A stretch of 60,078 nt of DNA, the filler included, from Dugesia japonica (lineage: Eukaryota): assembly GCA_001938525.1 (NCBI GenBank). It is 4 parts of 4 records of this genome, joined end to end, with 100 filler letters (N's around TTAATTAATTAA, not from the genome) between each part and the next. Parts side by side here need not be neighbours in the genome. Positions count along the whole stretch, not along the records: positions 14,694 to 33,134 come from MQRL01177261.1; 3 more parts are not named here. One strand, 5' to 3'. Within the stretch, counting starts at the first letter, position 1; every line of letters starts with the position of its first letter. The notes under the pieces are model-generated. The model ran no database searches. It was not told the DNA's origin and was given only the letters and a program-made list of their open reading frames with translations. Of the stretch, positions 5,707 through 48,344 are shown one piece after another. The position numbers and the translations under genes are program-made.

Positions 5707-5799
5707 ACAATATGATGTTTGATTATCCTCAGAAGGCCGAGAAATGGAATAAGATGAGCGAAGTTATGAGAAAAATTTACAGATTCCTGAAAAGAAGAA

Positions 5800-7830: not shown

Positions 7831-7899
7831 AGTGCAGAGTAGACATCAATAATCATCGAGAAAAATTTGTTTGCAACATCGAGGCAAAATTTGGAAGAC

Positions 7900-11350: not shown

Positions 11351-11439
11351 TATGAATATATCACCAAAATTCTGGATCAACTCAATTTTTAAAACTCTCG
11401 CAGCNAAACCTATGACTTTTTCATCACCTTTGTAATCTG

Positions 11440-12410
11440 TTTGTATTAGAACAGCTTAAATAGCTCCAAAACTGGCATCTAGAATCATTTCTTTTGATGG
11501 ATAAGAAAATGTCAATATTGGAGCTGTAGATAATTCATACTTTAACTTCTGGAAGTTATTTTCATCATCTTTGGACCCTTCAATCATCTTTTCATTTCCT
11601 GATATCACTGTGTACAGTGGCGCAGTAATAATTGTATTGTAATTGTAATTGTATCTTTGATAAATTGACGATAATAATTATTTTTGTCGCAGAAAGGATN
11701 NTAACTCCGTAACACAATCTGGTGTTGATGCTTCTGTAATTTTTTAATTTTATCATCGTTAGTTTGATTTCCTTTTTGACTAATCAAGTGCCCCAAAAAA
11801 TTCAATTTATCAGTTCCAAATACACATTTTCCTGGATTAACTTTTAATTTTTATGCTTTAATTAAATCAAATGTCTTTTCTAATATTTGATTATGTTCAT
11901 CGACAGTTTTTCCATAAACAAAAATGTCATCCAAATAAACAATTATAAAGATTTTCTTTAAAAATTAAATTCATTAAACTCTAAAAAGTTGCCGGTGCTG
12001 TACATAAACCAAACGACAACCGATTAAAACAGAATTGTCCAATTTTCGTACTAAAGGTTGTTTTCATTTGTGAATCTTCGTCTAACACAACTTGATAATA
12101 TTCTTGTCCTAAATCTATAGATGATTAACTAGTTGTTCCGTGTAAGGTATCCAAAAGCGTTTTTATGCCAAGTACGGGAAATGAAAAGTTTTCAGTTACT
12201 TCATTCAATTGTCGAAAATCNNNNNNNNNNNNNNNNNNNNNNNNNNTTTTGGTATTATCACTAAAGGAGAATTCAATGGGCTTTTACATTTTCTTATAAT
12301 TTTTGATTCTAACAAATCTTCATTTAATTTTTCAACTTTTTCTTTCAAATGCATTGATTGTCTTCTTGGATTCTGAGAATTTGGAGGTCCATTTGTATTA
12401 ATTTACCACT
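11440..12410 (-). pseudogene. pol: Gypsy RT with RNase H start
   Basis: RLSFGLCTAPATF, VYLDDIF (about 11925-11942), NFLGHLIS, ILDASFGAI. Confidence 0.85.
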
Positions 12411-12639
12411 TGGTCTAAATAACATATCTGCAGTACTATGTTAATTCCTTTTTATATTATAATAGTATAATTAGACTACTGAGATAATTTATCCACGTCT
12501 AAAATTGTAATATTATTGGTTTCGTCGTCACCATAACAGTAAGAGCTTGATGATCTGTCCTAAGAGTAAATTTTCTTCAGTACAAGTAATGTTTGAAATG
12601 CAATTAATATAAATTCTCTATTTATAGGAGCAGCATTAG

Positions 12640-13635
12640 AGATTTCTTCAGACCCTGAAAAGTATTGTTTGTTTTATCTGCTCATTCTAACTTCTTGTTG
12701 ACTGGTTTGCTACACAACTGTTCTAAGATCCTTGATTTTCTTGCATAGTTTTCTATAAACTTCCTTTTTTAATTACAAATTTCTAAGAAACTTTGTAACC
12801 TTTTTACATAGTTAATTTTTACAAAATTTTCTTATTGCTTCTATTTTAGTTGGATCAGGTCAAACAGAATTCCTTCTAATAATGTGCCCAAGAAATTTGA
12901 ATTTNCTTTAAAGAAACTGACACTTTTCAGGATCGTTTCTTCAAACAAACTTCATTATTTTTGTAAATACTTTGTCAATTACTTCATAGTGTTGATCTTT
13001 ATTTTTCGTAAATATTAGAATGTCATCCAGATATGCCATATCACCTACACCTTTTGTCATCATCTCCTGAAATGTTCCTGGGGCCGCTGAGATTCCAAAC
13101 GACATTCTTTTAAAACAATATTGCCCATAATTTGTGAAAATGCAGTTTACTGGAGATTTATTTTCAGGTTCTATCTGTTAGTATGCATTTTCGAAATCTA
13201 TTGAACTAAAATATTTTGCGTCATCCAATTTTTCCAGCATTTCATCAAAATAAGGCATTAGAAAGGTTTACTTTTTTGCTACTGGATGTAACTGTCTAAA
13301 GTAAAAATACATTGCTATGTCTTTCTTTGCTTTTTTCAAAACACAAATCAGTAAGGTATTCCAATAAGAGTTACATTTCTGGGGTAATTTTATTCTCAAA
13401 CAGGTTTTGATTAGTTTCTTCAATTTTCGTTTCTAAGTTGGTGGCCTGCATGGTTTTAAGTTGAATATTTCACAACTTGTGACAATTTTGTGTATTGTCG
13501 GATTTATGCGTTCTACATCCCATTTTATCTGTCATGAAAATATGTTATTTATTTACAGTTATTTTTTATAACCTTTCAGAGTATTTATGGCTCTCCATTT
13601 TTAATTTTTCCCAATTTTTGCTTCATATTACAAAT
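12640..13635 (-). pseudogene. pol: Gypsy RT fragment
   Basis: RMSFGISAAPGTFQ, AYLDDILI (about 13020-13037), KFLGHII. Confidence 0.85.
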
Positions 13636-13749
13636 NNNNNNNNNNNNNNNNNNNNNNNNNNNNNNNNNNNNNNNNNNNNNNNNNNNNNNNNNNNNNNNNN
13701 NNNNNNNNNNNNNNNNNNNNNNNNNNNNNNNNNNNNNNNNNNNNNNNCT

Positions 13750-14593
13750 AAGAAAGTAACTTCTTTGCAAACTTCATCAATTTCTACTCCAGTTCTAACT
13801 TTCCCTACGATTTTAAGTAGATAGTTTAAATAAGTTCAATAATTTTAATATTTTTCTTAAGTTTTCACACCACAATTTTTTAACGCTCATTTCTTAATAT
13901 AGTTCTCGTAATCTATTAAAACAAGTCAAACACATAACGTTAATTCGAGCTACTATATCTATTTATTCTCTTGAAAAAAATATCATTAACATATCATTTC
14001 TCAAAGAAGAAGTGCTTTGACACAATTTACACAAACAATTAGGTTGCAATTTATGGTATAAAATATACCTTTTCTGTTTTGCTTTAGTTGTTCCAATTCA
14101 TTTGATTTTTCTCTCAACCCCAAAATTTTCCTTCTTTAAAAACCTGTATACTTTTTTTGTAACTTCAGCAGTCAAAGATTTATCAGTTTCAAATTAGTGT
14201 AGCACTTTTTTGTCTTATGTCCACTATTTCCATACCGTTGACTCCTAATTATTTAAAATAACTTTCTAATAAGACCTGCTTTTTCAAAACCAAAGCGATT
14301 TGTTGATTCTTTATNNNNNNNNNNNNNNNNNNNNNNNNNNNNNNNNNNNNNNNNNNNNNNNNNNNNNNCGTTTTTTCTGAACATTTGATTTAGTATGACC
14401 AATCTTATGACTAAGCCAACATTTGATATTCCCTTTTTACTTTCAGTGCAAACTCTCTCATAACTCTGGATTCAAAAGCTTTTCTACAATCAAGTCTTAG
14501 TTCTCTTGAACATCCAAATCTCAATATCCACTTTTCAAAAATAGCTTTTCTTATTGTTTCCTTGTCTTGTCTATGCATAATTCTGGTATAAGA
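13750..14593 (-). pseudogene. Gypsy gag zinc-knuckle/protease relic
   Basis: Degenerate knuckles IKCWLSHKIGHTKS and GNSGHKTKKC lie upstream of the RT on the same strand. Confidence 0.5.
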
Positions 14594-14693
14594 NNNNNNN
14601 NNNNNNNNNNNNNNNNNNNNNNNNNNNNNNNNNNNNNTTAATTAATTAANNNNNNNNNNNNNNNNNNNNNNNNNNNNNNNNNNNNNNNNNNNN
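14594..14693. other. Artificial scaffold spacer N44-TTAATTAATTAA-N44
   Basis: Exactly 100 nt, with a six-frame stop linker; recurs three times. Confidence 0.95.
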
Positions 14694-15480
14694 TGATAAG
14701 AGCCCTAAATATTTCGAAGATTAAAGAAGATTGACGGTTATTGAAATAATTGAAAGTAAAGAAGATGCTTTTATGGCAGATAAATGAGATGTAAGACGCA
14801 CACATCTGACCAGACACAAAATAAATAAAACAAAAAAATTAGATACGGATGCCAGTTTTTATACGATTGAAGCAGTATTGTCACAGAGAGATAAAGAAGG
14901 AAGAGAAAGAGTTGTTGCCTATGGATTAGGAATACTGCATTACACGAAAAGGCTTTTTGTCTGTGTATTATTTCTGTATGCATTTTAAACATTACTTTAA
15001 CGGTACAAGATTTACTCTTAGAACAGATCACAAAGCTCTAACATTCATGATGACAACAAAAACTAATTACATTGCAATTCCAGACATGGATTAATTAGCT
15101 GAGCAGTTTAGATATGGTTTTGGAATATAGAAAAGAAATACAACATAGTAATGCGGTTATGTTATCTAGACCAAGATATGAGGTATGTGTACAGTATCAA
15201 ATGTCACATGAAGATGCCAATAAAGAGAAGATTAAAACGAGAACACTGAACATAATTGAAAAGGAAAAAGAAGATAATTTAAACATTTCTGAGGAAACAG
15301 ATTTGATCAAGAAAATGAAAATTCCGGATGACAAACTACATGAAACAATAGAAGAAATTCATAATTTATTATGTCATGTAGGAGTTGAAAAGGTGTACAA
15401 ATATATTGCAAAGAATTTGTGGAGCCAAATACAGAAGATAGTTCGAAGTTGTGAAATAAGACAATTAAGACTCGATTGTG
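14694..15480 (+). pseudogene. pol: Gypsy RNase H-integrase zinc finger fragment
   Basis: LDTDASFYTIEAVLSQ, FTLRTDHKAL, EYRKEIQHSNAVMLSR, EIHNLLCHVG...CEI. Confidence 0.85.
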
Positions 15481-15960
15481 GAAAAGAAATTAATATAATT
15501 ACCTTGAATTAAATTGCACGTTATATTTATCATATTAATATTACAAATATCAACTTTATTTTCTGAATAATATTTTCCTGGTAAGTATTTTTTAGGTGAA
15601 AAACCTAAGATTGTATGAAGAAAAGGTTCTTTATTAAACTTAATTGTATGCTTTGTTGTTAAATTACATTTTGATGTTGAATGATCTGGTGTAACTTCAA
15701 TGCCATGATATTTTAATTTATTAGAGATTTCTTCAACTTCATAAGCTCCAAGTTCTATTGTTACATTTGCGAAGCCAGTGTTTTGTTCTGTTTTTAAAAT
15801 AAAAATATTATTTTTAGTATTAACATTAAAAATTATATTATAACAACTAAAACATAGTAAACTCATTTCATAGTCAGAATATAATTCTAACAGAAATCTT
15901 AAATCAACTTATAAATTAGATTCTTGACCAACAAATAAAAATTGATAAGACGTTTTATTT
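15480..15960 (-). pseudogene. Polinton/adintovirus-type minor capsid (penton)-like protein, truncated
   Basis: YNIIFNV..NN.F...IELGAYEVEEI...ILGF...YSENKVDICNINMINITCNLIQG pattern, recognised by eye, among other Polinton fragments. Confidence 0.55.
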
Positions 15961-15989
15961 AGTATTATCATAAGGAAAATTATTTATTT

Positions 15990-16420
15990 TTATAAACATT
16001 ATATTTATCTTTGGCAATTAATTCTTGATCTAATAATTCTTGACAAACAAATTTAATTTCTTTGCGTAAATTATTATGATCAGCTTTTACTGCTGAAATT
16101 AATAATTTTAATCGTTCAAATAAAGTTACTGGATTATTTAAGATTAACTCTTTTAAATCTTCACATTTAATAATATTTTTTTGTATTTCTTTTTCAACAG
16201 AAACTATTTTTTAATAATAACCTCAATAAAGTTGTTATAATAATTACAATTAGTAGGAACTTTAATATTTAATTCATTTAAATTAATATCAATTGCTTCG
16301 AGATCATTACTTCTTTTTCCTAAAATTAAATTCATTACTTCTTCAGAATAAGAAATTAGTTCTTTAGATAAAACGTATTTCTTTCTATTTTCTTCAAATA
16401 AATACATCGATGGATCTTTG
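15990..16420 (-). pseudogene. Polinton conserved hypothetical ORF
   Basis: C-terminal NPVTLFERLKLLISAVKADHNNLRKEI...QELLDQELI resembles the 'L.ERL.LL...AGN...EI' motif of Polinton ORFs and sits directly upstream of the penton-like ORF. Confidence 0.5.
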
Positions 16421-16497
16421 CTATATTTGAATTATGCAACGTAATCAACAAATAACCTCTGACGTAATTACGTCATCGAGTATTCAGAAACAATATT

Positions 16498-18118
16498 TTG
16501 AAGAATTACTTGAATCCTTTTTCGAAATTAGATTCTTTTTGGATTCCTTCAGATAATCGAAATCAAATGGATAAAATGCTTTCTTTAAAAATGGTTACCC
16601 CGGCTGAATTGGTTAGTATAAATCAAGAAAACAAATCGTATTTTCTATCAAATTTTTCAATATTCTTCGACTATTATCTGAAAAATTTCAAAAGCCAGCC
16701 AAATTTACATTCATACAAACTTATGTTTCCAGCAAAACTCGATAGTGGATTATATGTTTTCCACTTACGCTTTGGATCTCTCACAAGACAATGTACTTCT
16801 CAATGCTCTTGGCAAACTAATCGTCCCTGTGAATGTACAAATTGTGCTTGCGGATTTCACTCGAAAGCTAGGAAATGCCAAGGCAAATGCAACTTCTTTA
16901 AGATGTCAGGGAATTGAAAGGAAAATCAATGTAAGTTTATTAAAAATTTTCATTGTAATTTCTTAATTTGTAAACTTTGTAAAACAGTTTTCATTTAATT
17001 TTTAGCAAGCGTTTTGTGAATATTTTTGAGGAATTTTTTATTAATAGTTTTAAAGCCTTTATTAAGACTCGTGATAACGATTTTGTCAATTTTCTTGAAA
17101 GTTCTTTTGTGGTTAGTAACAATCATAATCAAATGCAAATGATTGATTTTTTGAAAAAAGTTGCAAAATGTGGTCAAATCCCAGATAGATTGAACTCTGA
17201 TTTTGAGACTGTTCTGTCTAATTTTTTGATGTCAAATAACTTTAAGAATTTCATAAAAACAAATAATATCTCAAAAAATCTAAATGAATCTAATGAAATG
17301 CTTATTTTTTATCGTTTTTTGCAGCGATTTTATAATTATTCCCTATTAAATATGAAATCTCAAAAGTCTCAAGCTTCTGCGATTATTGATTTAAGGATCC
17401 TCACTAACTTTGTTATCAATAAATCTTCTTGATACTTTTCCACATATTCCAGATAAGGATAAAATTTCTGTGGACATTTCTAACTTGCCCATTGCGGCAT
17501 ACCCCTGTTATTTTGAAGGATCAGATTCCCTTGAAACTCAAAATATTGCTCAGAGCCCTGATTTGGAGAGAAATGTATTGAATTCTTTTTTATTTGATAC
17601 TAAATTGGCTCTCAACTCACCAGCTAAAGGCCTATCCACTGCAAGTTCAGGCACCACTAATACTATGCAAATCCCTAATAAACTGACTCTTTCTGGAGGT
17701 CCTCTTGAGTCAAAAAGTGTTGTTTCTTGTGGTGAGTCTTTAAAATATTCCAAACTAAAAAACAATAACTACAAACGGATAAACTCTACGCCTAAATCAA
17801 TCTTTACGCGTAGTAAAACTATTAAGGCAATCACAATGCAGATTGGAAATACTGCTTCTTCCCTCGTTCCTAAACACAATGCTGCCAAAATTGCAAATGG
17901 TGTCAACTTCTCTAATGCAATCAAAAGCACAGAAAAATACATATCTTATGAGAAATGACGTTTAGGGTCCACAGTTGTCCCCACAATTGCCTCACTTCCC
18001 GCAACTGTAGATAATTCTTCTTCCGAGATTATTGATAGCAATTGGTTCAGTGATAAACAGATCAATGCTTTTATGGATAGACATCTGAACAGCGGTAGCC
18101 TTGTTCAAATTCTGTCTT
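16498..18118 (+). pseudogene. Intron-containing transposon-like gene with a Cys-rich (CXC-like) cluster and possible Ulp1-like protease start
   Basis: CTSQCSWQTNRPCECTNCACGFHSKARKCQGKC; GT-AG intron 16931-17005; S/T-rich linker; NWFSDKQINAFM at about 18040. Confidence 0.4.
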
Positions 18119-18119
18119 A

Positions 18120-18640
18120 AGATATAGTTGGGTAACAGGTATGAATTATTCTAAAATAAAATCAAAATATGCAAAAAAAAATTATGATATTTTTTTAAGA
18201 AAAGAAAAAGGAATTAGAGGTGGATCTTTAGGTGCTTGTGGCGAGAGACAAGTTTTTAACCATAACAATAATAAAAATCTATAAACGTAACAAGTAAATA
18301 AAGCAAAATTTGATGATTTAATAAAAATGATGGATTTAAATGAGGAAATTCCACCTGAATATTTCAAAGAAACAATTATAAAATATCTAGATAAAAATTC
18401 ATTATATGAATCTTGTATGACTAAGCTCTTACCTACAGGTGAATGTTTTGAATGTGAAGATTTAATTTATACTCCATCAACAGATAAAATAAATTACATT
18501 TATGAAGTTGATTTAAATATCCACCAGAAATACATGAAAAAACTAAATATATTTTCCTTTAGCACCGACAGAATTAATATTACAAATGAAATGTTAAGTC
18601 CATATTATGAGGAATTCTATCTGATTTTAATAAATTAATA
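18120..18640 (+). pseudogene. Polinton protein-primed DNA polymerase B, polymerase-domain fragment
   Basis: KGIRGG, YLDKNSLYESCMTKLLPTG, YIYEVDL. Confidence 0.85.
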
Positions 18641-20260
18641 ATCTCATTTACATTTTTCCCTTTTACATATTCATAAGGAAATGATATTTTGTTTGGTTCT
18701 AAATTAAAAGATTTAAAATGCGCAAAGTGATCTTATTGTAAAATTAATTTACCCATTGTTTCAATTGATGTAAAAGAACATAATCCCGCTAGTTGTAAAA
18801 TTCTAATATTTTCATATTGAAATGAAATGTAAACTTCATCTGTATAAGGGATTATTTTTTTAACTTTACTTGGATATTTTGCTAATAATTCTGGAAAAAG
18901 ATTAATAAAGATTATCATAATAATAAAAGATTATCATAACCTGATACATTGTGAAAATAAAATGGTATAAATAAATACTTTATAGGTTTATCTTGTAAGT
19001 TACACTTTGAATGAGTATAACTTCTAAATTCTCCAGAAAAATGATCATGATCTATTAATGAATTTTCAGTTATTAATTTATAACAATATCTACATTTATT
19101 TATACTCTGAGCTAGTCTGCTTTTATATTCTTTAATTAATTTATTGTCTTTTATATCAGTCAATTTATTATAATTCTATTCTGAAAATTCGATAAATATT
19201 TCATGTAAGCTTTTTTCATGAAATTCTTATATTCATTTACTCACTACATAAATTCCAAGAGATAAAGGTTTTTGTTTTTTAGTGTTATTACCTGTCCAAC
19301 TTTCAAAATCACCATAAACTACAAAAGGCATTTTATTTTTGTAAATATAATTTTGAAAAGAATAATATTTGTTTCGAAAATTAAACATTACTAATTTCAT
19401 GATTAATACATTCCTTTTGATGTTTTATTAATAAATTTTCACTATGATAACATTTCCTACATCTAATGCACAAATAATTTTTATTTCTGTTTGTTGTAAA
19501 AAATAATTGCACATCTCTAAACAAAATATAATGATTTTTTAAACTAATAAATGGCATTTATTTTCCTCAAATTTAGGTTTAGTTTAATAATTAGAAATAT
19601 ATAGAGATTCAATTTTTTCAGAGATAGTTACAGTAAATACATTTATTTGCTAATCATTTAATTTTTCAAATATTTTAACATCATCAATATATACAGGAAA
19701 TTTAATTCCATTCGTTTTAAACTCATTTAAATATGGAATGTATTTTTCAACTTGAGTTTTATGATGAAGTCTATATTTATGAGCTAAAATCGAATAGATT
19801 AAACATTTTCTATCTTTATTTTGAATATTAATTACTTATGGTTTTGAAAATGGTAATTTTCAATATGATGAGGAACCACCAGCTTTATATTGATATTTAG
19901 AAAGTTTGATTTTGTAATGAACAATGTAATTTAAATTCCATTCAGATTCATTTCGATCTTTATCTTCAATATATTTTTGTAATTCATTTATAATATCATT
20001 TACATCATCATTAATTTTACCTTGAATAGTCAATTGTTTATTCTTTGAATATGAATTTTAAATACTTTCAACATATTTACTGTTTACTTCTTTATCATAA
20101 TTACAATTTACAATAATTAGAACAATAATCTTTTTACCATAATTAAAACACTTGGTAATAATTTCATTGATTTCAGTTTGAAATTCATTAATCATTTTTT
20201 TGAAAATTTCAACTTTTTTGGTTAATTCCACTTTACTATCTTTAAAATTGGGATATTTTA
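18640..20260 (-). pseudogene. Polinton pPolB N-terminal/exonuclease fragment
   Basis: NIQNKDRKCLIYSILA, PFVVYGDFES, DHDHFSGEFRSYTHSKCNL, PFYFHNVSGYD. Confidence 0.85.
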
Positions 20261-20620
20261 GTGTGATGGTTTTGGTCAATTTGGTTCAGTTTTTACTATT
20301 TGGTAAATTATTTACTCACAGTGCTCAGAGTTTGGTCGACAATTCTCAGATTTTGGATGATTCGATCAATTATTTCCTAAGCATGGATAAACTTAGTCAA
20401 TGATTTAGTCACGGATGTCGGTTTTAAATGGTTTTGGCTGATTATGATCAATTATTTACTCACTAAGGTTAGTTTTTAGGGGATTTCAGTCAATTATTTC
20501 TTCGGGAATGATTGATTTTTGGATGATTTGGTTAAATATTTTGTAGGATTGGTTAATTTGAGTCGAAAATTTTCACAGATATTCGTGTGAACAATCAAAT
20601 TTGTTGAAATTTTCAACTTT
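20260..20620. repeat. Degenerate 21-bp-unit minisatellite (same family as 50735-52020)
   Basis: Recurring TTTGGTCAATT-like units; CAGTGCTCAGAGTT(T/C)GGT is shared with about 51848. Confidence 0.65.
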
Positions 20621-21338
20621 TTAAAAGATAATTTACATATTTTGTAGTAAATTGGGAAAATTAGGTCATATTTGTGTCAACTTTCAAATTTTTAAATCAA
20701 AATTTTATAAAAATCAAGGAGCTACCAAATTTTTAAAAATTTTTGAAATAAAAATTTTGTCGAGATTTTTATATCAATCGATGCAGAATTTGGTGGAGAT
20801 TATTTTTCAGAAATAAAAATTTTTTGAAAAAATATCTTTTCATGAAATTACCATCTATTAAATAGAGAGTTTTTCAATGATTATAAATAATTATACCTAA
20901 AATCACCAAAGTTTATATCTTTATATCTAAACGATAGACGTATTTTCTTGTTTGCTCTAAGAATTATTTGATTTCCAATGGAGTTCATATAAGTTATCGC
21001 CAGAAATGAGACAAATGTTTACCAATTGCTAGAATTTTTTTAGAATCTTTAAAAAAAAGTTATACGTCGATGAAAATGATCAGAGAAAAAAATAAATTAA
21101 CTAAACATTTGGAATAATTTTTATGATCTCTTCAAAAAATTTTGAAAATAAAAAATTGAACTAATTAAATAAACCGCTATATAAACCGTATATAAATCAC
21201 AGCAACATATAAATTAATCTATGAAAATAATTTCTTCGCAAATCATTTAAAATCACTGAACCTTTTAAAGATATCTAATTATGACCATAAAGTATAAGAA
21301 AGACCAAGCTGTTAATTATATTTCGTAGACAAATTTGA

Positions 21339-21950
21339 TTGGATATAAAGATATTGAGTCGGGCCGACGATTTAGAAGTTTTTATCAAACAATGCCAGTG
21401 GTATTTTGACATTCTGGCAAAGCCGAAAAAGATGCGTGATGCGTTAATAGGCGCAATTATCGATGAAGATTTGATTGCTGACTACGAACGAACGGTATCA
21501 CGAGGAAATGGGTTTGAATCACGATTGAAGATGGTATTTGGGAAGCCCAAGGACATCATAGCAGATTGGGAAGAGATGTTTCTATATAAGAGAGAATCAG
21601 AGAGCATCCAGACATACTTTCAAGTAGTGAAGAAAAAGTTCGAAAATAATAAGAAAACCAAATAACCGAAGAACAAATAATCGCAAAAATTTTGGTACAT
21701 TGCAGTGGCAACGATGAAATGAACAAGAAAGTAGAAATTCGGGAATAAGCATCAATGGAGGTTATCGAGACATTAATGATAAAAATAAGGAAAATACAGA
21801 AAAGTAATTGTTATATCAAAGAAGAACGAAACTTTAACGAAGTACTGAAAGGAAATGAGAGACAAGTTTGGGCAGACAGACCGAGAACTGATCGGAAGAC
21901 CAAATACTGGGAGCCGACCAGAGACAGGACAGAATGGAAAATATTAATCA
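21339..21950 (+). pseudogene. gag: Gypsy gag fragment
   Basis: KILSRADDLEVFIKQCQWYFD aligns with KIICRSDDLEKLVNWCKIYFD of the gag at 4595. Confidence 0.7.
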
Positions 21951-22519
21951 AGTTAACATGCTCGAAATGGTATTTTTTTAAAGAAAGTTTTCTGTAATTA
22001 TGCAATCAATCGTTTTTATATTGATATCGATGAATCGGCTATTAGCATTTGTAAGACCAGTGGAAATTAAATGGAAATCAATATTAATAAAACACGTTTT
22101 ATTAATTATGACACCGACAACATTTCTATATGAAAGAATGCCAAAATATTTGATTCACAGCAATTCGATTTTATGTGCAGTGTTATATTAAACAATGCCT
22201 TAAGAAAATCGCATTTGGTAATTATTGTATTTGTCATCACAGTTATCAGTATGGCCACAAGAAAATTTACTTTAATATCGTAAAAGTTTACTTTAAAAAT
22301 TTTAAAAATTGAATTTATTTACCTATATATCTTTCGCATCGTACCTTTATTATAAATCTTATTTAGTGAACGTTTTCATGAAAACCAAACATTACAAATC
22401 ATAAAATTAAAAACAACTTTATCAATATTCACATAAATATGAATTATAAAAAGAAAACAACAATTTCATATTCAGTTTCATTTTAGTTATAAATTTTCAA
22501 TATCACTGAATTGTAATGT

Positions 22520-23181
22520 AAAGTTAAATAAGATAAATAAATGTTTTTAGCAGAAAAATGTCTGTCTTTTGCAAGGATTTTTTCAGCATTGAAAATCTTC
22601 TCTCTACAAAAGCAGAAGTGCATTGACTTTTTTGTAATAATGCAAAGATCGATGGTGACATTTCCTCTCGACTGCAGTTCACAATTGACATCCCATCGCT
22701 TTTTTTAAATACGGAGCAATAGCAATACGGATCCATTTCAAATTGTAGTTTTTTAAAGTATTCAGCAGGTGGTTTAATGTTGCACCCAGCGCTCTCCAAA
22801 GAAATTACTAATACTGCTAATAGATGGTAGTTTTGTTGAATAGTCAAAAGATCTTGGACAATTTGATCACTTTCCATTGTCTTTTGCTTGTGATAACAAG
22901 AAACCTTTATCATCCCGACTGCGCATAATTTGTTTCACTTCTGGGATATTTTTAGATAAATATGAAGCCACCTCAATCCAAAGATCACATTGAGTAAGTA
23001 TTGGTGTTGGAGAGTATATAATTGAATCAAATTGGCTTTGTTTTGATTTGTTTTTAATACTGGGTAATTTAATGCGAGCGATCAGTAAGTCAACATTGCC
23101 AAAATGAGCACGCTCCGTCATCGCACAGTTAAAGATTAAATGAGCTGCACAGTTAACATGAAATAGACGTGGATATAACAT
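22520..23181 (-). pseudogene. hAT-like (CGGBP/DUF659-type) transposase fragment
   Basis: LFHVNCAAHL (CxxH), PTPILT, C-terminal TSAFVERRFSMLK. Confidence 0.75.
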
Positions 23182-23752
23182 ATGTAAAGTTTAAAAGAAA
23201 ATAGTTAAAATTAAACTTTAATGAATATTTCTATATTTCAAAATGTTTAACACAAAATGTAAAATATGCAACCAATAAATTAAACACACTAAAATATAAG
23301 AAAAGTACACACGTAAGTCTAGTCAGTTCAATAACAACTTCCGCACAGTATTTCCAATATATCACAATTGAATATGTCAAAAAAGTCTCAGAATAAATAG
23401 ATTCAATTAACAGTTTTATCTACATTTTTTTTATGACAACACAGCTTTCAAAAAATATCTTAATAAGCACTTTTCCTATTTTCAGTTATTAAAACAGTCG
23501 TTGAGAATCTTAATTTTTAGTAACTATTTTAACTTTTCTTCACAGTGCTTGTCACATCACGACGTTTTTCAACAAAGAAATTCTTTTTATGTTTCACAAT
23601 GGTGTCCATTTATTTGCTAAAAAATTCGTTGCATGGTGTTGTAGAAAACTCCAGTGGATGATTTCGTATGATGGTAGCTATTTTTGAACTATTGCACTTA
23701 GCGACTTTAGGCATCAAGTCTCAAATGAAAGTGAGTAAAAAATGACGGGTCA

Positions 23753-25014
23753 GTGAAATACGTTAGGACATGTTATCACGAGTATCACACAATTACGTGC
23801 ATTACAGTTATTGTTCTTTCCGAGACCACCAATAACTTTCAAGTGAAATGCTTATACTGTTTGACAGTATTCTGGGGTGGTAATTGTATCCGAGCATACA
23901 TGGGTATTAAAATTGCAACATGCGTCGCCAAATGTGAAAAGGTGCCAGTGAAAATTCTGGAATGCTTCAAACCAGCAGATGCTGTTAAACAAGCTGAAAA
24001 ACAAGAAAAAGAACGAAAAATAAATCTAGATAAGGTGGTTGCATCCCCATCGTTGTCTTCATTGTCCTCAAAGCAACTGAAACTATACGATATATTCAAA
24101 AGTACTGAGAAATATTATTATCTCAGAATTATTGGGGCAAAGTATGCACCATTTATGATATCCCCAGAAATTCAGCATTTTCAGGAACATTGGTACACAA
24201 AGGTATCAAAGATGAGACGAATAGCATCGGAAGTTTTGGGATATGATAGCATGATAGTGATATTCTATAGATGACATGAACTAGGCGATGATGAATATCT
24301 TTTCGATTGTGGATGCATTCCAAATAGTTTGAATCATGTGTTTGCCTACAAAAAGTTATTAGACGATAGTGAAACTATCGAATTTCAAATAAAAATTATG
24401 ACGATGATGATGATTTCGAAGATGCAATAGAAGAGCCACAAATGTTTAAAAGTGAACCTGTAGTGTCTCTCGCTGATAGTACACCAACCAATCCATATCA
24501 GGATAATGGAAACATTAAATCAGAAAATACAATGACAATAACAAAGGTCTGTATGAAATCTCCAAGGAATTAGTAAACCTTACAAGGCGAACTCATAATA
24601 ATACCGAACCAAGAAAATCGTTGCAGGATTACTAAAAGATCTATTCCCATTATTGCAACTTGAAGACTTAGAAAGTGAATATATTAAACAACTCAGTGTG
24701 GAATTACGTAAAACTCATCCGAGCGTTGTACAAAGATACGGAAATGAAACATTTTGTGACAATAAAATTTTAAATGAATTAGTCAAAGATGAAATTAATT
24801 CACAGGTAATTATTACTGGTTTAACATATTTTACAGATTGGTACTTATGTGTTTGTGAAACCTGATGAAATACAAATTTATTTAAATGAAGCATCTATCG
24901 AAATAAATAAATATTTTCTAAATTGGATTAAAAACAATCGTGGTTGGAATATCGTAAAAAATGAAGAAATAATGCCAAGACCAAGCGCTACTAGAGAAAA
25001 TCCATTGTTATATT
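23753..25014 (+). pseudogene. Unknown pre-Env domain(s) X
   Basis: Long, mostly open frames. Motif KVSKMR...SMIVI...DEYLFDCGCIP (motif core 24290-24322) has a homologue at 47626-47658. Confidence 0.6.
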
Positions 25015-26836
25015 CTACCTGGCTGATATTTAAGATCATTATTTTAATTTGCAAACTTAATCAAACTGCGTCAATTACGGCATATGATTGTTCTCAAACA
25101 GAAATGGGAAAATTTATTCACTAATGGATGTGGAACGATGTCTTGAAGCATACTCGATAAAACTTTATACAAATGAAAATCTAAAATAATTTGTATATCA
25201 GGAATCAGGATTCAGACGAGTAAAAGTAAAGGAATGTATTGTGAAACGAACTAATTTTGTATATTATTGTGGTAAATGCAGTCATACTTCAATCATAAAA
25301 ATGACTTATATTCCAAAACTAGTCGAAATTACTCCTGAAAACTGTTTAGTGGCTTTTCAAACCAATGAAATAAAAATCAGCCCTGAGATCAAACTAAAAG
25401 CCAAACTGAATCATGCAATAAAAGAGACTATTGTTGTAAAGGGAATGCTAGAGAAAAGTGGTGATTTCACTGGTGAATCATTCAAAATATCTGAGAAAAT
25501 AGTTGACAAAGTAATAATTATTGAGGAATATGTTGCTGAATTACGATAATTTAATGGAATATTTGATGATAACAAAGAGAAACAAACCAGTTGCCAAACA
25601 GGAGAATCAATTCTTGTTTATGATGTTAAATATAATCAATGTAATTTATGACATCTTAAAACAATGGTCTTTAACGAAATTTATGGTGAAAAAATAGAAG
25701 ATAGACCAGATAAAAGTATGACAGTAAATCAACCAAAAAAGGGAATCCGAATTATACCTCTCTAAATGAGAAGAACTCAATAGTGGTGGTATCAACGTCC
25801 ACAGATGATGCAATGAGATTTATTAGAAAAGAAAAATGTATTAAATGTGGAAGTGAAATATATGGAACAAACTATAAAGGAATCTATGTTTCAAAGAAAA
25901 GTAGAAAAGCTAAAATTTGAATTCATATTGAAGATATAAAATTAATAAACTATTTTAATATCAAAATTGACTATCTATTTCATCATGGACAATATATAGC
26001 GGAAACAATGTACAGAGAAATGATACTCAATGATTGTAAACTGAAAAATGAAATTCTACGAAATAGAATAATTATGGTAATAACTAACCCAAATCTAGTG
26101 GCACCTATGCTTATATCGGAAAACGGAGTCTTTGTAAGAATTATGAGAGATGTATTGTTTAGTTATAAATGTAAAGAAGTTCCAATAAAACTCGCCAAGT
26201 ATGAAAAGTGTACAAATGAGTTGCTTGTTAATGTAAACGGAAAAATTGAGATTTATGGAACCTATTACTAGAATATTACTTGAGAAGGTGTTAAACCAAA
26301 ACACTTACAGTGTAATAGACCATTATCACCTTTATATCGTTTAACTGCAGAAACATGGATTGCCTTACCAGATCACAGAGAGGTTAAAACCCCAGAAAAC
26401 CTGAGGCTACAAAGCTGGAGTATTTAATTAATTTTACATTTCTAAATAATATTGCTCAGAGCTGAATTTATTCAAGTGAAGACATTGAAGAAGCCAGACG
26501 AAATCTATTATATCCATCTAAAAAGGAAAGAGTTATTATGGAACTAGTCGATACAATACTACCAAGAGGTACATGAAAAGTAAATTATGAATATTTATTA
26601 ACACTTGTCCACTATAAAAAGGCTACTCACAACACTATGAAAGAAGATTTGTGTTCTTTGGACAAGCCTGCGCAGGATTAATTGAAATCTATATTATGAT
26701 AACAATAGCTAGAGTGATCGCAGCACAAATTTTATCAACGTATCGATTATATGCAATAGTAGGACTATCGTGGAAATAAATAATTGGATGTGTACCTTTT
26801 CTAGCCAAATTCTTTATTATTGATCATCAATATAGA
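25015..26836 (+). pseudogene. env: Chuvirus-like / herpes gB-type (class III) envelope glycoprotein
   Basis: Signal-like WLIFKIIILICKL, then ITAYDC (25080), YYCGKCSHTS, EITPENC, KIDYLFHH, MYREMILNDC...NPNLVAP, YKCKEV, CTNEL, MEPITRIL, and membrane region FFGQACAGLIEIYIMITIARVI...LYAIVGLSW. Confidence 0.8.
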
Positions 26837-27241
26837 TAAAATGATTTTAATCAGAAAACGAGCAAACCAAAGCATTTATTAAAATATGATATTGAATATG
26901 GTCAAAATAGTGGTGATAAAGAAGGAAATAATGGTCCACCAAACTCTTTAAACAACCATCCAAACAAGAATGATGACAGTGAAATAACTCAATTTCAAGA
27001 ACCTGGAATAGTCAAAAGAAATTTGTTTCCTTATGATACATTTAGCAGGTTATGTATACCTTAAACATTTATGCAAACAGCACCTGTATATCCAATAGAT
27101 AAATTAAAGTAAATGAAACATGTTGATAATATTAATAATGATACTGTTATAAAAATGGAAGCAAGCACTGTAGAAATCGAAAGAAAGCATATATTAGGAC
27201 TACCATGTAATTATGTGATGATGACTTTTGTTAAATGCTGA

Positions 27242-30200
27242 AGACAACCTACTGTGTGGATACAATTTAACAAGCATAAAGTAAACGCTATGCTCGATTC
27301 TGGATCTAGTAATACAATTATATCAGGTGAATTACTAAGCTTCAAGGAAGCAATTCAAATTATACCATCAAAGGAAGTTGTAAAATCAATTACAAGGGAT
27401 ACATTGAATATTATTGGTCAAATTAAAGCAAGACTATTTATCGGATGAAAAGAAATAATACATGATGTGTTGGTTATGAAAAATAGCCCAGTAATGTGTC
27501 TAGTATGAATGGACGTAATGAGTCGATTACAAGGAATTTCAATGGAATTGTGTACAGGTAATTTGATAATAAGTGGAAGAAATAATGTCATTCATAAAAC
27601 AAATGAAGTGTTCTTAAATCAATCATTAACAATTCTACCACACACGGAAATTGTGCATTATGCTAGAACAATAACTGAAATCGATAATGACTATTTGTTT
27701 CAACCCTGTCTCAATTTGATGAAAAAATATGACACTGCAATATGTTACAAAATAGTAAATGTCAAAAATCAAGTAGTGCCAGTATGCATTAAAAAGGCTA
27801 AATTACCAAAAAATGTTAAAATATACAAGGAACCAGGCGTAGCAAGCTCAAATTTGTCTGATAGACAAAGTAAAAGATTTGACAATCTGTTAAAGCAATA
27901 TTACGAAGTATTTGCAAAGCATGAATATGAATGAGGCATAACTAATGTCATTGAATCGCAATCCATATACATACAGAGAAGAATGAGACCGGCAATTATC
28001 AGCAATGAACGAATTCGGAATTATACGTGATAGTATGTCGCCATTTTTATCATCAAGTGTAATAGTAAAGAAAAATGATTGAAATCGCAGATTATGTATT
28101 GATTATCGAAAACTGAATCAAATAACAAGAAAGGGCATATGTCCTTTACCATTGCCACAAGAAATGTTCGATTTAATTGGATAAGTTGAAATTATATCAG
28201 AAATAGATTTAAACATGGAATACAGTAAATTTGGGGTTACATTAGAAGATAAAAAGAAAACTGCATTATCAGGTGGCAAAGGGTTGTATGAGTTTAATGT
28301 GTTACCATTTCGATTAATGGAAGCACCAGCAATATTTCAAAGAGGTATAAATTTTATATTACGAGATATTTCTAATGTTTTAGTATATATTGATGATATT
28401 ATAAAATTCTCGAAAACATTTGATAGAAGTAGTACTCGAAAGATTAAAAGAAGCTAATCTTAAAATAAAACCATCAAAATGTGAATGGGGAAAAAACGAA
28501 GTTGTGTATGTTGGTCACGTAATATCAAAGCATGGATTAAAACCAAATCCAGATAATGTAGTAAATATAAGAAATTATCCAATATCAAACAGCGTCGATG
28601 ATGTTCTACAATTTTTGAGTTTGGTCAGTTATTATTGGAAGTTTATTCAAACGTTTTCTCATCTTGCTCAACCATTAAATTTATTACTCAAGAAAAAGAC
28701 AAAGTTTGTATGGGGAAAACATCAGCAAAAAGCTTATGAAATATTAAAAAAGAAACTATTGCGTGAACCAATCTTGTGTTGTCCTGATTTCTCAAAATTA
28801 TTTATATTAATGACTGATGCTAGTAATTATGCGTTGGGAGCAGTGTTAGGTCAAAAAGTTGACGGAGAGAAAAATCACGTGATTGCGTATGCAAGCAGAT
28901 CATTAAAACCACACGAGGAAAACTACTCAACAATTGAAAAAGAAACGTTAGCACTAATTTATTGAGAGACCACATTCAGGCAATATTTAATCAGCAGAAT
29001 GTTACAATGGTTAATGAAGCATAGAGATACGAACAGTAAATTAATCCGATGGTCATTAGCCTTACAGGAGCATGATTTCGAAATAAAATATCGAACAAAC
29101 AAAGCAAATACAAATACAGATACTTTATCAAGAATCAACGACAATAATGAACAGAAGCTAGAAAATATAATATTTGCGGCAATAGAGGCTTCTAATATTA
29201 CAAGTGAATTAATCAAAGAACAAGAAGAATACAAACAATTAAAATATGCTAAACAACATGTGGCAATAATCAAGGATGAGAAGCAATTGAAGGAAATCAT
29301 AAAATAAAAGCAAAGGTATTATGAATTATCTAAGAAATAATGAATTGTTAATAGTAGTACCAGAAAAGCACCGAAACTCATTAATGATGCAATATCATGA
29401 CGGTGCATTTGGAGGGCACCTCAGAGCTCGAAAAACATTATCAAAAATGAAACAAAAATATTATTGGGATACTGTGAAACTTGATGTTAAAAACTGGTAT
29501 CAGACATGTAAAGTGTGCTTAACTATAAGAAAAACCTATGCCAATACGATGGGCCCCAATGGAAATGACAGCAATGAAAGTTATAGGACCATTGCCAAAT
29601 ACAGTAAAGGGTAATAAATACATTCTAGTTTTCTGTTATTATCTCACAAGATCGTTAGAAAGTTATGCTATACCGAATCAAAAAGTAGAAACAATTGCTC
29701 AAATATTCGTAGAACATATCATATTTAAATATGGAACTCCAAAGATGTTGCTCACTGATCAAGGAGCGAACTTTCAAAGTGAATTGTTTAAAGCTATAAC
29801 ATAATTATTCGGAATACTCAAATTAAACACATCACCTTACTACCCTCAAACTGATGGACTCGTTGAAAGACTCAATGGAACTCTTATAAATATGATTTTA
29901 TCATATGTTAATCGAAAACAAAAAGATTGTGACGAATTCATTAAACCTTACTTATTTGCATACAGAAATGCAATTATACTGGAGAAACTCCTTTCTATTT
30001 AATGTACATAAGAAGAAACAATATACCTATCAATTTAAAATTTTAACAACCTATATCCCAGTATATGGAAATCCCAAATTACAAAACAATAATGCATGAA
30101 CGAATGCAATTAGCATGGACTCGAGCTGGATTAAAAATGAAATACAATCAGGAAAAAATATAATGAAGCTTATGATAAAAAGGCTCACAAGTCCTAAGTC

Positions 30201-30381
30201 TACAAACACCATTCAAAGGACCTTATGAAGTTCGTGGAAAACAGAGACAAATTTCAAATTAAAACGAATTCAAAAAAAAAGAAGCGAACCAATAATTGTG
30301 CATGCAAATCGATGCAAACAGGTTCCGAAAGAAGATAAAGAAAGATACTCATTACGAAATAAAACAAAGATAAAAGAGAAC
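27242..30381 (+). pseudogene. pol: Gypsy pol: protease, RT, RNase H, integrase
   Basis: AMLDSGS; RLCIDYRKLN; LPFRLMEAPAIFQ; LVYIDDII; LMTDASNYALGAVL; YSTIEKETLA; H..AFGGH...CKVC; LLTDQGANF; YPQTDGLVERLN; FKGPYEV. Confidence 0.95.
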
Positions 30382-30399
30382 TAAATAATTTTTCATAGA

Positions 30400-31585
30400 A
30401 TCCAAATCTCTTAGAGTTATTTGAACAAAAGCTTGTTCATTATGTGTGAAAACCAATTTCCCACCTACTGAAACTCAAGTAAGCATTCTAGAAAGAATAG
30501 ATGTCTACTCAACATATACTCAAATAATATGAAAATTTAAATACCAACTAAACGAAAAAATCATTCTTGAAAATAAACTGGAACCTTTCCCAATTTCTTC
30601 TGAAATAAATCACACCAATTCAATCTATATAAAAAACGAACTCATTATGAAATACAAATACCCTTGGATCGTCACCGAAATGGTGTCACCATAGATACAG
30701 CATTTCAAACTCCAAGGTATCATAAAAATAAATGTGTGGACAAAAGAATTTACAAACTTTGTCAATATTATACCAATACTGGAAGGTATAAACATCTTTT
30801 GGATACCAATTCAATCCATAAAAGTTTAAATAAAAATTGAAAACTATCCAATTAAAACCCTAATCCATCATAAAACCTTTGCCTATTATAACAATCTAAC
30901 AATGAATAGAAGTTATTCAGTAATAATTACTTATTCTGAAATTTTCATACTCAAAAATGGAACCTTTTCCAATAACAAGAAATCACACAATATCATTGTA
31001 TAATGAAACAAATCGAATTACGAGATTATTGCAAATGAATCATTTCAAATCTCAAGAAACTCAAAATCCGATGAAAAAGTTATCCTTCGTTACTATTCAA
31101 AGTACTCAAATGAACGTTTCATACTAGATAATAAAGGGTCTTTAGAAAAAAAATTTAATATCTTACATTTAGATAAAGTGCACCATCTCAAGGTACTCTA
31201 TCAAAAACAACAATCAAACCCTACTGATTGGCGAGCAACTTTCTCAGAAAATCTTCGAATAATTCCGGACGAACTGAACAAAGTTCTTAGTCAAACAAAC
31301 AATGTTGTTTTAACAAAGATCAATCATTCAGTGTTAAACAATTCTCTATTAACAAAAAATAAACAACTATTGAACTCATTTTATAATTTGAGCACAATGA
31401 CATCGTTAACTGATTTATATATTAACAATTCTCATGCTATCTTTCTGTGCATATTCATCGCATTATGTTTATTCGTCTCACCAATATTATTATTCATACT
31501 AATTAAAATGCTTACATCAGAACAAAGAATTTCGAAGGACTCAATGTATCAAATGGACAATATCTATATAATCTCGGAAGTATAG
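30400..31585 (+). pseudogene. Post-integrase accessory ORF with a C-terminal transmembrane helix
   Basis: ORF 31178-31585 contains AIFLCIFIALCLFVSPILLFILI; disrupted coding-like sequence lies upstream. Confidence 0.45.
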
Positions 31586-31690
31586 TGAGACAATTTTATT
31601 TATGACTTAAAATTATTTATAAATGCATTAATATGTAAAAGATGAGTTGAGAATTCTGAGTTGGGTTAGTGGGGGCGACATTTCGGGAGA

Positions 31691-31913
31691 TGATAAAAAA
31701 TAGATAAAACTCTATCACAGCAAAATATATGTGTATACGACAATGACAATGAAGGTAATATACAAGAAAGTATAGAAATATGAAATGAACTATGAGAACA
31801 AATATAAAATAATAAACATTTAAAAATTTTGAAATATACAATAAAATGCCAATATAAAATAAGAATAAATTTAATAAACGTTCATTTGGGTTTGCTCAGT
31901 TTTAAGCATGACA
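31691..31913 (+). repeat. Possible 3' LTR of the env-bearing element
   Basis: A G-rich tract (GTGGGGGCG...GGGAGA) is followed by TG...AATAAA...TGACA. No 5' partner in the window. Confidence 0.3.
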
Positions 31914-33134
31914 TTGTTAATATCAAAATTCTATATATGCATAAGTGTCTATGTGTACGTATAAAAATGTGTATATACATATCTTTATTGGTAATTAACA
32001 AATAAAATTTCGTGATAACAATTTCATAAAATCATTCCCCAAAATATTATTGATATTATTGATATTACTATAATCAATTATTGTCATTATTATTATCCAA
32101 AATATTATTGATCATCACTGTCAATAGTATTACTATTAAAGTCAAGAATAATTTTGCATATTAAATAAATTATAAATCTCATCACAAAAAAAATAATAGT
32201 ATCAATTTGAATCCTGAGGAAGTCGAGAAAGCATGGTTTCTCGATATCCCAAGATTTAGTCTAAAATAGGTTGTCAAACTAAATGAGCGTTATCGATGTG
32301 ATTATCATTTTACTATCATCATTAATTTTAAAATAATTATTTCTCAACAATAAATATTAAAAAATTATCATAATTATAGTCAGTCATACTATTAATGTTG
32401 TGGTGAAATATTGATATTATTATTAGAATAAATAAATTTTTAAAAAATGAATCTAAATAAATAAACGTATTGTTACCTAAATTCAAAAAATATATATAAA
32501 TGTGGCACACTGTCCGGAGGCAGTGTGCATATTGGTTTATGACCTTTTTAAAGGCCATATACATAAAAAAATGGACAAAAATAAAATCATAAGCAATCAT
32601 ATGATTACAAATTTTCTTATAAAAAAAATAATAAATTGGAATATATAAACAAATTGTATTAAAATTATGTATTTGGAATTTTTTGTAGTTAATTTGAAAT
32701 TAAGTGACTAAAATTTAGTATTAAGTTTATAAAATAAGTTATAATTAATATTTATAATTTAGGAAATGAAAAAATTAGTAAATTTACATAATACATAAAT
32801 TTTAATTATAATTTGTATAAGTCGATTTCATTATAATGAAATATTTATATTTCGAGGATGAAAATTTTTAAAGGGAGGAGATTTAATAAGGTTGAGTAAA
32901 TTTACATTCCAATAAAATACGAAATTAATTTACACTTGTAAAATAAAGGAATAATGATAATGATTTATGTCAAACTTGTGTCAATATGTATTATAAATGA
33001 AATTATAAGCATGTGAATGCATGTGTATATTTGAGTGCTATCAGGAACATTAAAATCTAGCAAATCTAAATAAATAAAATATTAATTAATTAATTAAAAT
33101 ATTATGTTATTAATAAGCGGAAAGATGAAAAAAA

Positions 33135-33234: not shown

Positions 33235-34940
33235 AAACCGATTTCATTACACGGCGGTAATGAATCTAAATAGGCTAATGAATCGGGATATCAAAAAGAA
33301 CGGGGTACCGATACAATCAATTTGGTGCAAAGATTGCCTAAATGGGTTCAGGGACAACAATGCTTACGACAAGCATCAACCAATTTGCGAGCGAATACAA
33401 ACCGGCACAACANNNNNNNNNNNNNNNNNNNNNNNNNNNNNNNNNNNNNNNNNNNNNNNNNNNNNNNNNNNNNNNNNNNNNNTAATATACGCTGATTTTG
33501 AATCAGTACTCCCGGCGAATGACCGTCATTTCCAAAAACATTTACCGATTTCGGCTGAACTTTGGTTGGTAAATAATTTTACCAACGTAAGCAAATACAG
33601 CCAGTTTGTTGGAAATGACTGTATCTATGAATTTTTAAAGGCAACAGAGAATATAAGCAAAAATGTGGTGTATCCATATTACGATCGAAATGGTAAAAAG
33701 AAAATCAGGATTACACCAGCTCAGGAAGAGGAATTTAATAGGAGCACAAATTGTTATTCATGTAAAAAAGAAGATAATCGACCCAGTTCGTGATCACGAT
33801 CATTTCACAGGTCGATATAAAGGAGCAGCCTGTTCGAAATGTAATTTAAGCAGAAGATTATTAATACAACTACCGGTTGTATTTCATAATTTGAAAGGAT
33901 ATGATCTTCATCATATTCTTAAATACGNNNNNNNNNNNNNNNNNNNNNNNNNNNNNNNNNNNNNNNNNNNNNNNNNNNNNNNNNNNNNNNNNNNNNNNNN
34001 NNNNNNNNNNNNNNNNNNNNNNNNNNNNNNNNNNNNNNNNNNNNNNNNNNNNNNNNNNNNNNNNNNNNNNNNNNNNNNNNNNNNNNNNNNNNNNNNNNNN
34101 NNNNNNNNNNNNNNNNNNNNNNNNNNCGTTATAATGTCAAAGGGTATTTTTCCATATAATCTTGCTACAAGTTTGCAAGTGTTGGAAAATACCACAACAA
34201 TGCCACCAAGATGGGAGGTAGTTAGTGAGCAAGATTATGAGAAGGCGTTAGAAATGTGGACAATAACAGGATGCAACAATTTATTAGATTACANNNNNNN
34301 NNNNNNNNNNNNNNNNNNNNNNNNNNNNNNNNNNNNNNNNNNNACTTTTTTCAACAGTTCAGGGCTTAATCGATAGCAAATAATAATTTGGATCCATTAA
34401 ATTTCTTTGGAATCCCGGGTATGAGTTGGGCATCAGCATTGATGTCGTTAAAGGAGCCCATTGAACTGTTGATGGACAATGGTATACCTTTTTTGAAGGC
34501 GGTATACGAGGTGGGCTAACATTTGTAAATAAANATTATGTTGCCTCCAATGCGAACACGGAATTACTGTATATAGATATCAACAATCTATTTGAATGGG
34601 CTCTAAGTCAAAAATTACCGTATGCTGATTTGGAGTGGGTGTATAGTGGATTAGACGAAATTATTGAAGAATGTAGATCAGCAGACTTCGAGTCTCTAGC
34701 ATATAGATACACATTGGAGGTGGACATGGTTATTCCGGCTGAGATATAAGATAAGTTGAACGATTTACCTGTAGTAGCAGAACATCAAACTCCTCCAGGG
34801 TCAAAAGTGAAGAAATTATTATTGACTCATAACCCGAAATTTAATTATGTNNNNNNNNNNNNGTTGCTGCAAATGTACATAAGATTAGGAGTACAGGTAA
34901 CATCGGTTCATAGGGCGGTTAAGTTTAAACAAGCTTGGAT
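33235..34940 (+). pseudogene. Polinton pPolB (near-contiguous, gapped and frameshifted)
   Basis: IYADFES, VRDHDHFTGRYKGAACSKCNL, PVVFHNLKGYDLH, KGIFPY, GIPGMSW, GIRGG, YIDINNLF*WALSQKLP, LEVD, KKLLLT, VHRAVKFKQ. Confidence 0.92.
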
Positions 34941-48300: not shown

Positions 48301-48344
48301 ATAATTAAGATACAATAAAAATTGCAAATAATAAAATGTTTAGT

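Follow-up and report, generated by a model that had tools for sequence, protein, structure and literature searches.

The window analyzed here is a 60,078-nt stretch of Dugesia japonica DNA (assembly GCA_001938525.1) made of four joined parts, and the part at positions 14,694–33,134 (MQRL01177261.1) carries a Ty3/gypsy-type retroelement on the plus strand, from 23735 to 31582. A Pfam scan of 28 proteins of the window recovered, in this order, the fusion glycoprotein family PF24664, an aspartic protease (PR), reverse transcriptase (RT; RVT_1), RNase H (RH) and the integrase (IN) families Integrase_H2C2 and rve. Three-frame translation and tblastn revealed about 14 frame changes across 23735–31582; this copy is dead, decayed and truncated at its 5′ end. 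The first-pass annotation had given the layout as X-Env-PR-RT-RH-IN, with Env for the envelope glycoprotein, and had ended the element at 30381. The domain order held, but the annotation had missed both the nature of X, which is a ubiquitin-like (Ubl) plus a Bcl-2-like domain, and a membrane protein behind the integrase, with which the element runs on to 31582.

The class III Env, of the type of chuvirus glycoprotein (G) and herpesvirus glycoprotein B (gB), occupies 25080–26860 (+) with its membrane anchor at about 26669–26719, contains several stops and changes frame four times (24825–25121, 25118–25762, 25714–26424, 26388–26678, then 26618 onward). Four of its pieces matched PF24664 Monjiviricetes_fusion (E = 1e-14, 1.5e-24, 0.018 and 6e-6), and identity to the database relative P0005 was 31–45%. 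A phmmer search of PDB with a window Env piece and with the relative P0028 gave no hits. An AlphaFold model of the relative P0008, made with a 91-row alignment (predicted local distance difference test score, pLDDT, 82.7), matched herpes gB (E = 2e-13) and chuvirus G (E = 8e-42), the two folds that the first-pass annotation had expected, and the class III fold and conserved cysteines are kept across the 91 rows. Directly ahead of Env, positions 25002–25079 (+) hold a signal-like helix (25002–25052; hydropathy 1.99) and the residues that lead to the AYDC motif at 25080; in relatives, a hydrophobic stretch stands directly before the same AYDC-type motif. The helix had been described as embedded in a frame open upstream. 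That frame is indeed open from 24825, with the qualification that an in-frame ATG (24972) lies ten codons ahead of the helix.

The central earlier observation, a chuvirus-G-like glycoprotein directly ahead of the protease and joined to it by an unchanged frame, was reproduced to the nucleotide. From 26651 to the protease DSG motif at 27296, the frame contains five stops in 216 codons (26777, 26837, 27062, 27110 and 27239), compared with 23 and 27 in the other two frames and 18.7 in shuffled sequences, none of 5000 shuffles being as low. One detail needed correction: two of these stops (26777 and 26837), and not one, fall inside the Pfam Env match. PR itself (27248–27540, +; Asp_protease, E = 5e-4) has two further stops in its interior, at 27446 and 27506, and the stretch 27260–27961 is 41% identical to the relative L001. 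It is followed by a dUTPase-like spacer with a shortened C-terminal end (27605–27790, +; hidden Markov model (HMM) of six relatives, independent E-value (iE) 1.5e-5) and by RT and RH of the Ty3/gypsy type with frame changes (27957–29070, +; RVT_1, RT_RNaseH and RT_RNaseH_2). The integrase (29318–30363, +; Integrase_H2C2 and rve) retains zinc-binding, core and C-terminal parts spread over four frames, with tblastn identities of 40–62% to P0007 and P0155.

Relatives were collected with the Env piece 25714–26424 as query (E ≤ 0.001), taking the best 150 of 262 representatives; 14 of these matches were long (at least 900 amino acids, aa). Among the matches listed, Env was followed by a PR motif in the same unbroken open reading frame (ORF) in 10 of the 14 long relatives, with CCHC knuckles upstream in five of those ten, and RT was reached in five of the 14. 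Gag/CCHC or ankyrin segments were found within the same ORF as Env. The relative P0155 (4844 aa) combines Env, several protease-like repeats, ankyrins and Pol, and single relatives are collinear with the window from Env through the end of the integrase. A single unbroken ORF in the relatives runs from an internal signal over class III Env and its anchor to PR and Pol, in line with the single ancestral polyprotein proposed by the first-pass annotation. In a quick RT-RH tree of 42 rows, the window copy fell into an 11-row branch (SH-aLRT support 96) together with four of six Env-Pol polyproteins. The best PDB match of the relative P0006 was Ty3 Gag-Pol (E = 5e-119), and the nearest named Pol matches were of gypsy type (among them 17.6, 297, TED and an errantivirus).

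In several of the relatives P0005, P0007, P0012, P0013, P0017, P0155, P0160 and P0162, aspartic-protease-like repeats number from two to six or more, and some of them lie after the integrase. A hydrophobic hairpin lies ahead of Pol in P0155, and ankyrins stand at different places in P0155 and P0160. A search of ESM Atlas with residues 1250–1470 of P0161 gave no usable match. L001 and P0006 are animal retroelement sequences filed under bacterial metagenome-assembled genome names (Turicibacter, Flavobacteriaceae), with contamination as the most likely explanation.

Seven sequencing runs matched the window, at small word shares (0.07–0.08), and no RNA run was among those listed. Copies in four DNA runs of one organism covered all 30 bins, with contigs 85–99% alike, and single run contigs bridged the ectodomain-to-tail and linker-to-PR junctions; because of this coverage and bridging, the element is a member of a multicopy family and no chance juxtaposition. 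Lacking the anchor of Env and the greater part of the linker (26579–27134), a variant copy was present in all four runs. The window also holds a second, divergent fragment on the minus strand (45610–47751; tblastn), with Ubl (iE 8e-4), a weak Bcl-2-like match (10.9 bits), the signal and Env over its first two thirds, 32–38% identical to Env of the first copy. Over 45610–49600 (−), a long coiled-coil-like, low-complexity stretch precedes these same domains, and Env is cut at 45610.

The region upstream of the signal, called X in the first-pass layout, consists of a ubiquitin-like and a Bcl-2-like domain. At the cut 5′ end lies a cysteine-rich open frame (23735–24187, +) with no Pfam match; the frame has one stop in 231 codons over 23735–24427, compared with 18.1 in shuffles. 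A BIR reading of 23735–24187 was a motif impression with no Pfam match and is not claimed. The Ubl domain (24188–24346, +) contains one stop and was recognized by an HMM of three relatives (iE 3.5e-6). A four-row profile including it matched the UHRF1 UBL domain (E = 4.5e-5), the top match of that profile being a designed repeat protein, reached via summed weak stretches. The Bcl-2-like domain (24602–24983, +) is split between two frames, with a BH2-like motif near 24920–24955. With the residue letter X set at the break between the frames, an HMM of three relatives gave it 26.5 bits, and 7.9 for the best of 500 shuffles. Both window copies and P0028 share the succession Ubl, Bcl-2-like domain, Env, which is also the published order of Burro.

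The linker between the Env anchor and PR, predicted to be cytosolic, contains a YPx3L late-domain-type motif at 27086–27106 (+; motif search). Such motifs were counted in 12 linkers from the Env anchor to the first protease, belonging to 11 relatives and the window; P0155 was dropped as a near copy of P0012. YP was present in 11 of the 12 linkers and YPxL in five (0.33 expected), and eight carried a canonical late motif (YPxL, YPx3L, P[TS]AP or PPxY), compared with 0.95 expected and a maximum of five in 2000 shuffles. Since the motif was first noticed in polyprotein linkers, the tails of stand-alone G proteins provide an independent test. Removing 15 polyprotein or partial rows, and seven without a tail, from the 91 glycoprotein rows of the alignment left 69 stand-alone tails; the rows are 50%-identity representatives, and the counts are uncorrected for kinship. 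YPxL occurred in 21 of 69 tails (0.95 expected), P[TS]AP in nine (0.8) and PPxY in ten (2.2), and 36 tails had at least one late motif, with 4.8 expected and a maximum of 12 in 1000 shuffles. Per residue, there were 21 YPxL in 5,350 tail residues versus five in 38,261 ectodomain residues, from which P[TS]AP was absent. Ten of the stand-alone G proteins were looked up; two were named chuvirus glycoproteins (P0126 and P0153), and the tails of both carry P[TS]AP and an LYP motif (LYPx[IL] type). P0008 had no match in viral contigs.

These classes of late motif are established ligands of ALIX, TSG101 and NEDD4 ligases, and their enrichment makes a role of the Env-tail motifs in budding somewhat the better bet. 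[quoted passage not shown] As a whole, we regard this proposal as evenly poised. Chuviruses are not known to have a matrix protein; if the proposal is true, Env-tail late domains would also account for how chuviruses leave cells without Gag or a matrix protein driving. Irrespective of the window element, chuvirus-type G tails rich in late motifs offer a lead on chuvirus budding.

Behind the integrase, the element continues at 30425–31582 (+) with five stops in 386 codons, compared with 30.1 in shuffles, and ends in a strong hydrophobic helix at 31451–31501, recognized by hydropathy as a membrane anchor; the stretch matched L001 behind its integrase (E = 1.5e-6). Nine of 12 relatives examined extend well past the integrase core, and eight of these nine have at least two hydrophobic helices there. 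The ninth has one such helix after the integrase, followed by an in-frame stop. As controls we used those 84 of 114 other gypsy Pol matches, all of at most 2000 aa, that contain an integrase core; behind the core, none had two such helices or as many as 350 residues. In a low-confidence model of the post-integrase part of the relative L003 (pLDDT 46.6), a helix, two beta-rich domains and a second helix follow one another, and 12 of the first 13 Foldseek rows were FN3-domain structures (best E = 6e-4). The region is thus described as tandem-FN3-like in relatives. In a search for proteins that match the post-integrase region of P0158 on their own, none of 135 candidates reached a score; P0158 gave two loci in genome contigs and one in metagenome contigs. 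Right behind the polyprotein, L003 has an intact ORF of 615 codons (3712–5559, +) with a weak RNase_T/DEDD exonuclease match (E = 0.003), a candidate accessory gene.

With a probability of about 0.8, we read the window element as a decayed Burro-like Ty3/gypsy element whose intact kin would work as a single polyprotein threaded twice through the membrane; for the identity of the element and its single-polyprotein layout taken alone, our confidence is very high. This scheme builds on what was observed: the domain order in the relatives' unbroken ORFs, a class III fold for Env, hydrophobic helices in two pairs, and Env tails enriched in late motifs. An intact ORF would comprise Gag with accessory domains, Ubl, the Bcl-2-like domain, a signal, class III Env, an anchor, a linker, PR, the dUTPase-like domain, RT, RH and IN, followed by another signal, the tandem FN3-like domains and another anchor. 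The chain would be threaded through the membrane of the endoplasmic reticulum twice, with signal peptidase cutting behind each signal. Flavivirus and alphavirus polyproteins are likewise threaded through the membrane. The Bcl-2-like protein would be left facing the cytosol as a tail-anchored protein, as is normal for the Bcl-2 family, Env and the FN3 protein would become luminal type I surface proteins, and Gag and Pol would stay in the cytosol, where the element's own protease is predicted to free the enzymes. Because everything would start as one membrane-tethered chain, Gag, Env and Pol would be delivered to one site at 1:1:1. Late motifs in the Env tail would recruit ESCRT factors of the ALIX, TSG101 or NEDD4 type, so that an enveloped particle would be pinched off and budding would be tied to the envelope protein. 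Env would then fuse the particle into a neighbouring cell by class III fusion, with the FN3 protein as a candidate attachment factor, while protection of the producing cell would fall to the Bcl-2-like and ubiquitin-like domains. The chances that such particles infect other cells are about even, and an attachment role of the FN3 protein is less likely than not.

Two alternatives concern single steps of this scheme and are compatible with the identity of the element. The same element might not use Env for spread between individuals or cells, but bud into an internal compartment or pass to neighbours by Env-driven fusion or vesicle transfer, with the Bcl-2-like and Ubl domains keeping the host cell alive. 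One polyprotein forces Env and Pol to be made in amounts equal to Gag, which is not how retroviruses make them, and the presence of accessory anti-death domains also fits such a life; the available text of PMC6431247 and PMC13524379 holds no infectivity data. Set against this are an Env that keeps its full class III fold, with conserved cysteines over 91 rows, and late motifs shared with the named chuviruses P0126 and P0153, and we consider this possibility unlikely, though not to be neglected. The tyrosine motif of the Env tail could also be an endocytic YxxPhi sorting signal and not an ESCRT late domain. YPxL also fits YxxPhi, and four of the 12 linkers are without a canonical late motif. 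However, the proline after the tyrosine is kept in 11 of the 12, and P[TS]AP and PPxY are enriched in the same tails, with P[TS]AP missing from ectodomain residues, which leaves the sorting signal slightly less probable still.

The remaining two alternatives would break the layout itself. Env could be a separate gene with its own start (ATG 24972) and stop, sharing its frame with PR by accident; the ATG ten codons ahead of the signal and the five stops between anchor and PR would suit such a gene, and three ORFs with gaps allowed between ENV and POL are described in the available text of PMC13524379. The first-pass annotation had named a conserved stop between the two genes as evidence that would speak for separation, but in 10 of the 14 long relatives no stop separates Env from PR, the stop density of the linker frame equals that of a decayed ORF, and P0005 has no methionine just upstream of the signal helix. 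We therefore hold a separate Env to be improbable. Finally, Env and Pol could derive from different nested elements, or a chuvirus insertion could lie beside an ordinary gypsy element, in a window that is crowded with fragments of other elements. Nesting, likewise anticipated earlier as a way for the layout to fail, is contradicted by single relatives collinear over Env, PR, RT and IN, by the grouping of the window Pol with Env-Pol polyproteins and by other copies that bridge the junction region; its probability is minimal.

Several observations weigh against the twice-threaded polyprotein or its parts. For the window copy, Gag, CCHC, MATH, BIR, Smc and ankyrin were not found by Pfam (the copy is cut at about 23735), and no flanking long repeat that could be a long terminal repeat (LTR) was present within the window. 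A second internal signal, present in relatives, cannot be made out in this copy, in which hydropathy finds the anchor kept. The Env-Pol rows do not form one clade in the quick tree, the remaining two of the six polyproteins being a sister branch. P0008, one of the three relatives behind the Bcl-2-like HMM, matched Pfam Bcl-2 with E = 9.6e-4, under the curated cut-off, and Bcl-xL with E = 0.01, and ESM Atlas returned for residues 1–125 of P0005 only matches under 0.9, none of them Bcl-2. Five of ten PDB matches of the PR-RT spacer profile were named dUTPases, the best (E = 0.14) being weak and below cut-off. As for the protein behind the integrase, P0158 reached only E = 0.21 against Pfam fn3, the L003 model is of low confidence, and the control Pol proteins were limited in length. 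The four linkers without a canonical late motif belong here as well.

The rest of the window contains remnants of other elements. A different repeat of higher depth (22500–23750, −), with no Pfam match, adjoins the cut 5′ end of the element; a hAT reading of it was a motif impression and is not claimed. Decayed LTR-element fragments with zinc knuckle, RT, RNase H and integrase lie on both strands at 4236–8250, 10870–15470 and 21348–21623, the one at 5821 having a very long branch in the RT-RH tree. A gapped fragment at 33236–34900 (+) gave an Endonuclease_7 match (E = 0.002), with related pieces at 18933–19052 and 56448–56603; its motifs recall a Polinton-type protein-primed DNA polymerase, and Pfam had no match on three pieces. 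A DDE_1 transposase fragment lies at 52583–53041 (+; E = 2e-29).

Comparison with known systems shows that the layout is not new, contrary to what the first-pass annotation had considered possible: it is published for Burro (PMC6431247) and catalogued in three phyla (PMC13524379), according to the available text of both. Burro elements are giant gypsy-like LTR elements of planarians, longer than 25–30 kb and with long LTRs, whose N-terminal part contains MATH, BIR, Smc and ankyrin domains besides a Gag bearing CCHC knuckles (PMC6431247, citing Jurka 2007 and Grohme 2018). ORF1 of Burro/GYPSM1 is described there as Gag, accessory domains, Ubi2/SUMO-like, BCL2, Env, PR, dUTPase-like, RT, RH and IN (Arkhipova and Yushenova 2019, PMC6431247), and the same text reports matches of Burro Env to mononegavirus fusion proteins, as well as decayed fragments with stops and frameshifts from Dugesia japonica. 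The window element shares with Burro the PR-RT-RH-IN order, Env in frame between BCL2 and PR, a Bcl-2-like domain ahead of Env (a weak, positional likeness) and Ubl ahead of that domain, and it differs in that neither the Gag/MATH/BIR/Smc part nor LTRs were found for this copy. An in-frame Env between Gag and Pol is a published Burro hallmark, and its finding in the window is a rediscovery. In the available text of PMC11410931, Burro appears by name alone. Burro Env was tied to gypsy Env by HHpred in the text of PMC6431247, whereas the model of a relative gives a class III, gB-like fold here.

GAG-ENV-POL elements with gB-type ENV are reported from Nematoda, Bryozoa and Platyhelminthes in the available text of Chary and Hayashi 2026 (PMC13524379, citing Sacco 2022). 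Smed_errantivirus_1 and _2 from Schmidtea, of the flatworm group C1a of 'ancient errantiviruses', are intact there, with 45 and 215 near-identical copies. The window shares with these errantiviruses the HSV/gB-type Env directly upstream of a gypsy POL; the window copy falls outside the listing rule of that catalogue, intact GAG, ENV and POL, which is a rule and not a family trait. From 25190, window Env is identical to Smed_errantivirus_2 at 75 of 128 ungapped positions (counted by eye), and database relatives reach 30–38% to the window over a like Env stretch. Smed_1 and Smed_2 are 63.7% identical to each other, and either is 32–38% identical to Smed_3–6. The agreement of window Env with Smed_2 comes near the first of these values and is well above the second, which makes a planarian host likely. 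That Smed_errantivirus_1 and _2 are Burro is inferred, and this too counts among the weaker links of our reading. Chuvirus glycoproteins are also carried by BEL/Pao elements (Dezordi 2020, as cited in PMC13524379). Chuvirus G belongs to the same PF24664 family and fold as the window-type Env, but in chuviruses and BEL/Pao elements G stands alone, at about 650 aa, whereas the window-type G is internal to a gypsy polyprotein. BEL/Pao elements with chuvirus G have a BEL/Pao Pol and Env after the integrase; the window Env precedes PR, and its Pol is of gypsy type.

The text of PMC6431247, figure content apart, says nothing of late-domain motifs or of an FN3-like membrane protein behind the integrase, and the term FN3 is absent from it. 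The main text of PMC13524379 does not use 'polyprotein', 'late domain', 'ESCRT', 'cytoplasmic' or 'in-frame', and 'Burro' does not occur in its supplements. For an artovirus-like virus, late domains are reported in ORF I and ORF III and not in G (PMC6394706, available text). In literature that excluded most subscription journals, we found no prior report of late-domain motifs in chuvirus G or gypsy Env tails, nor one of a post-integrase FN3-like protein. Relative to the literature, the late-domain motifs in the Env tail and the second membrane protein after the integrase are thus additions that we did not find in print, and they make two questions directly testable: whether Burro is an infectious provirus, and by what route Env-first elements and chuviruses bud.

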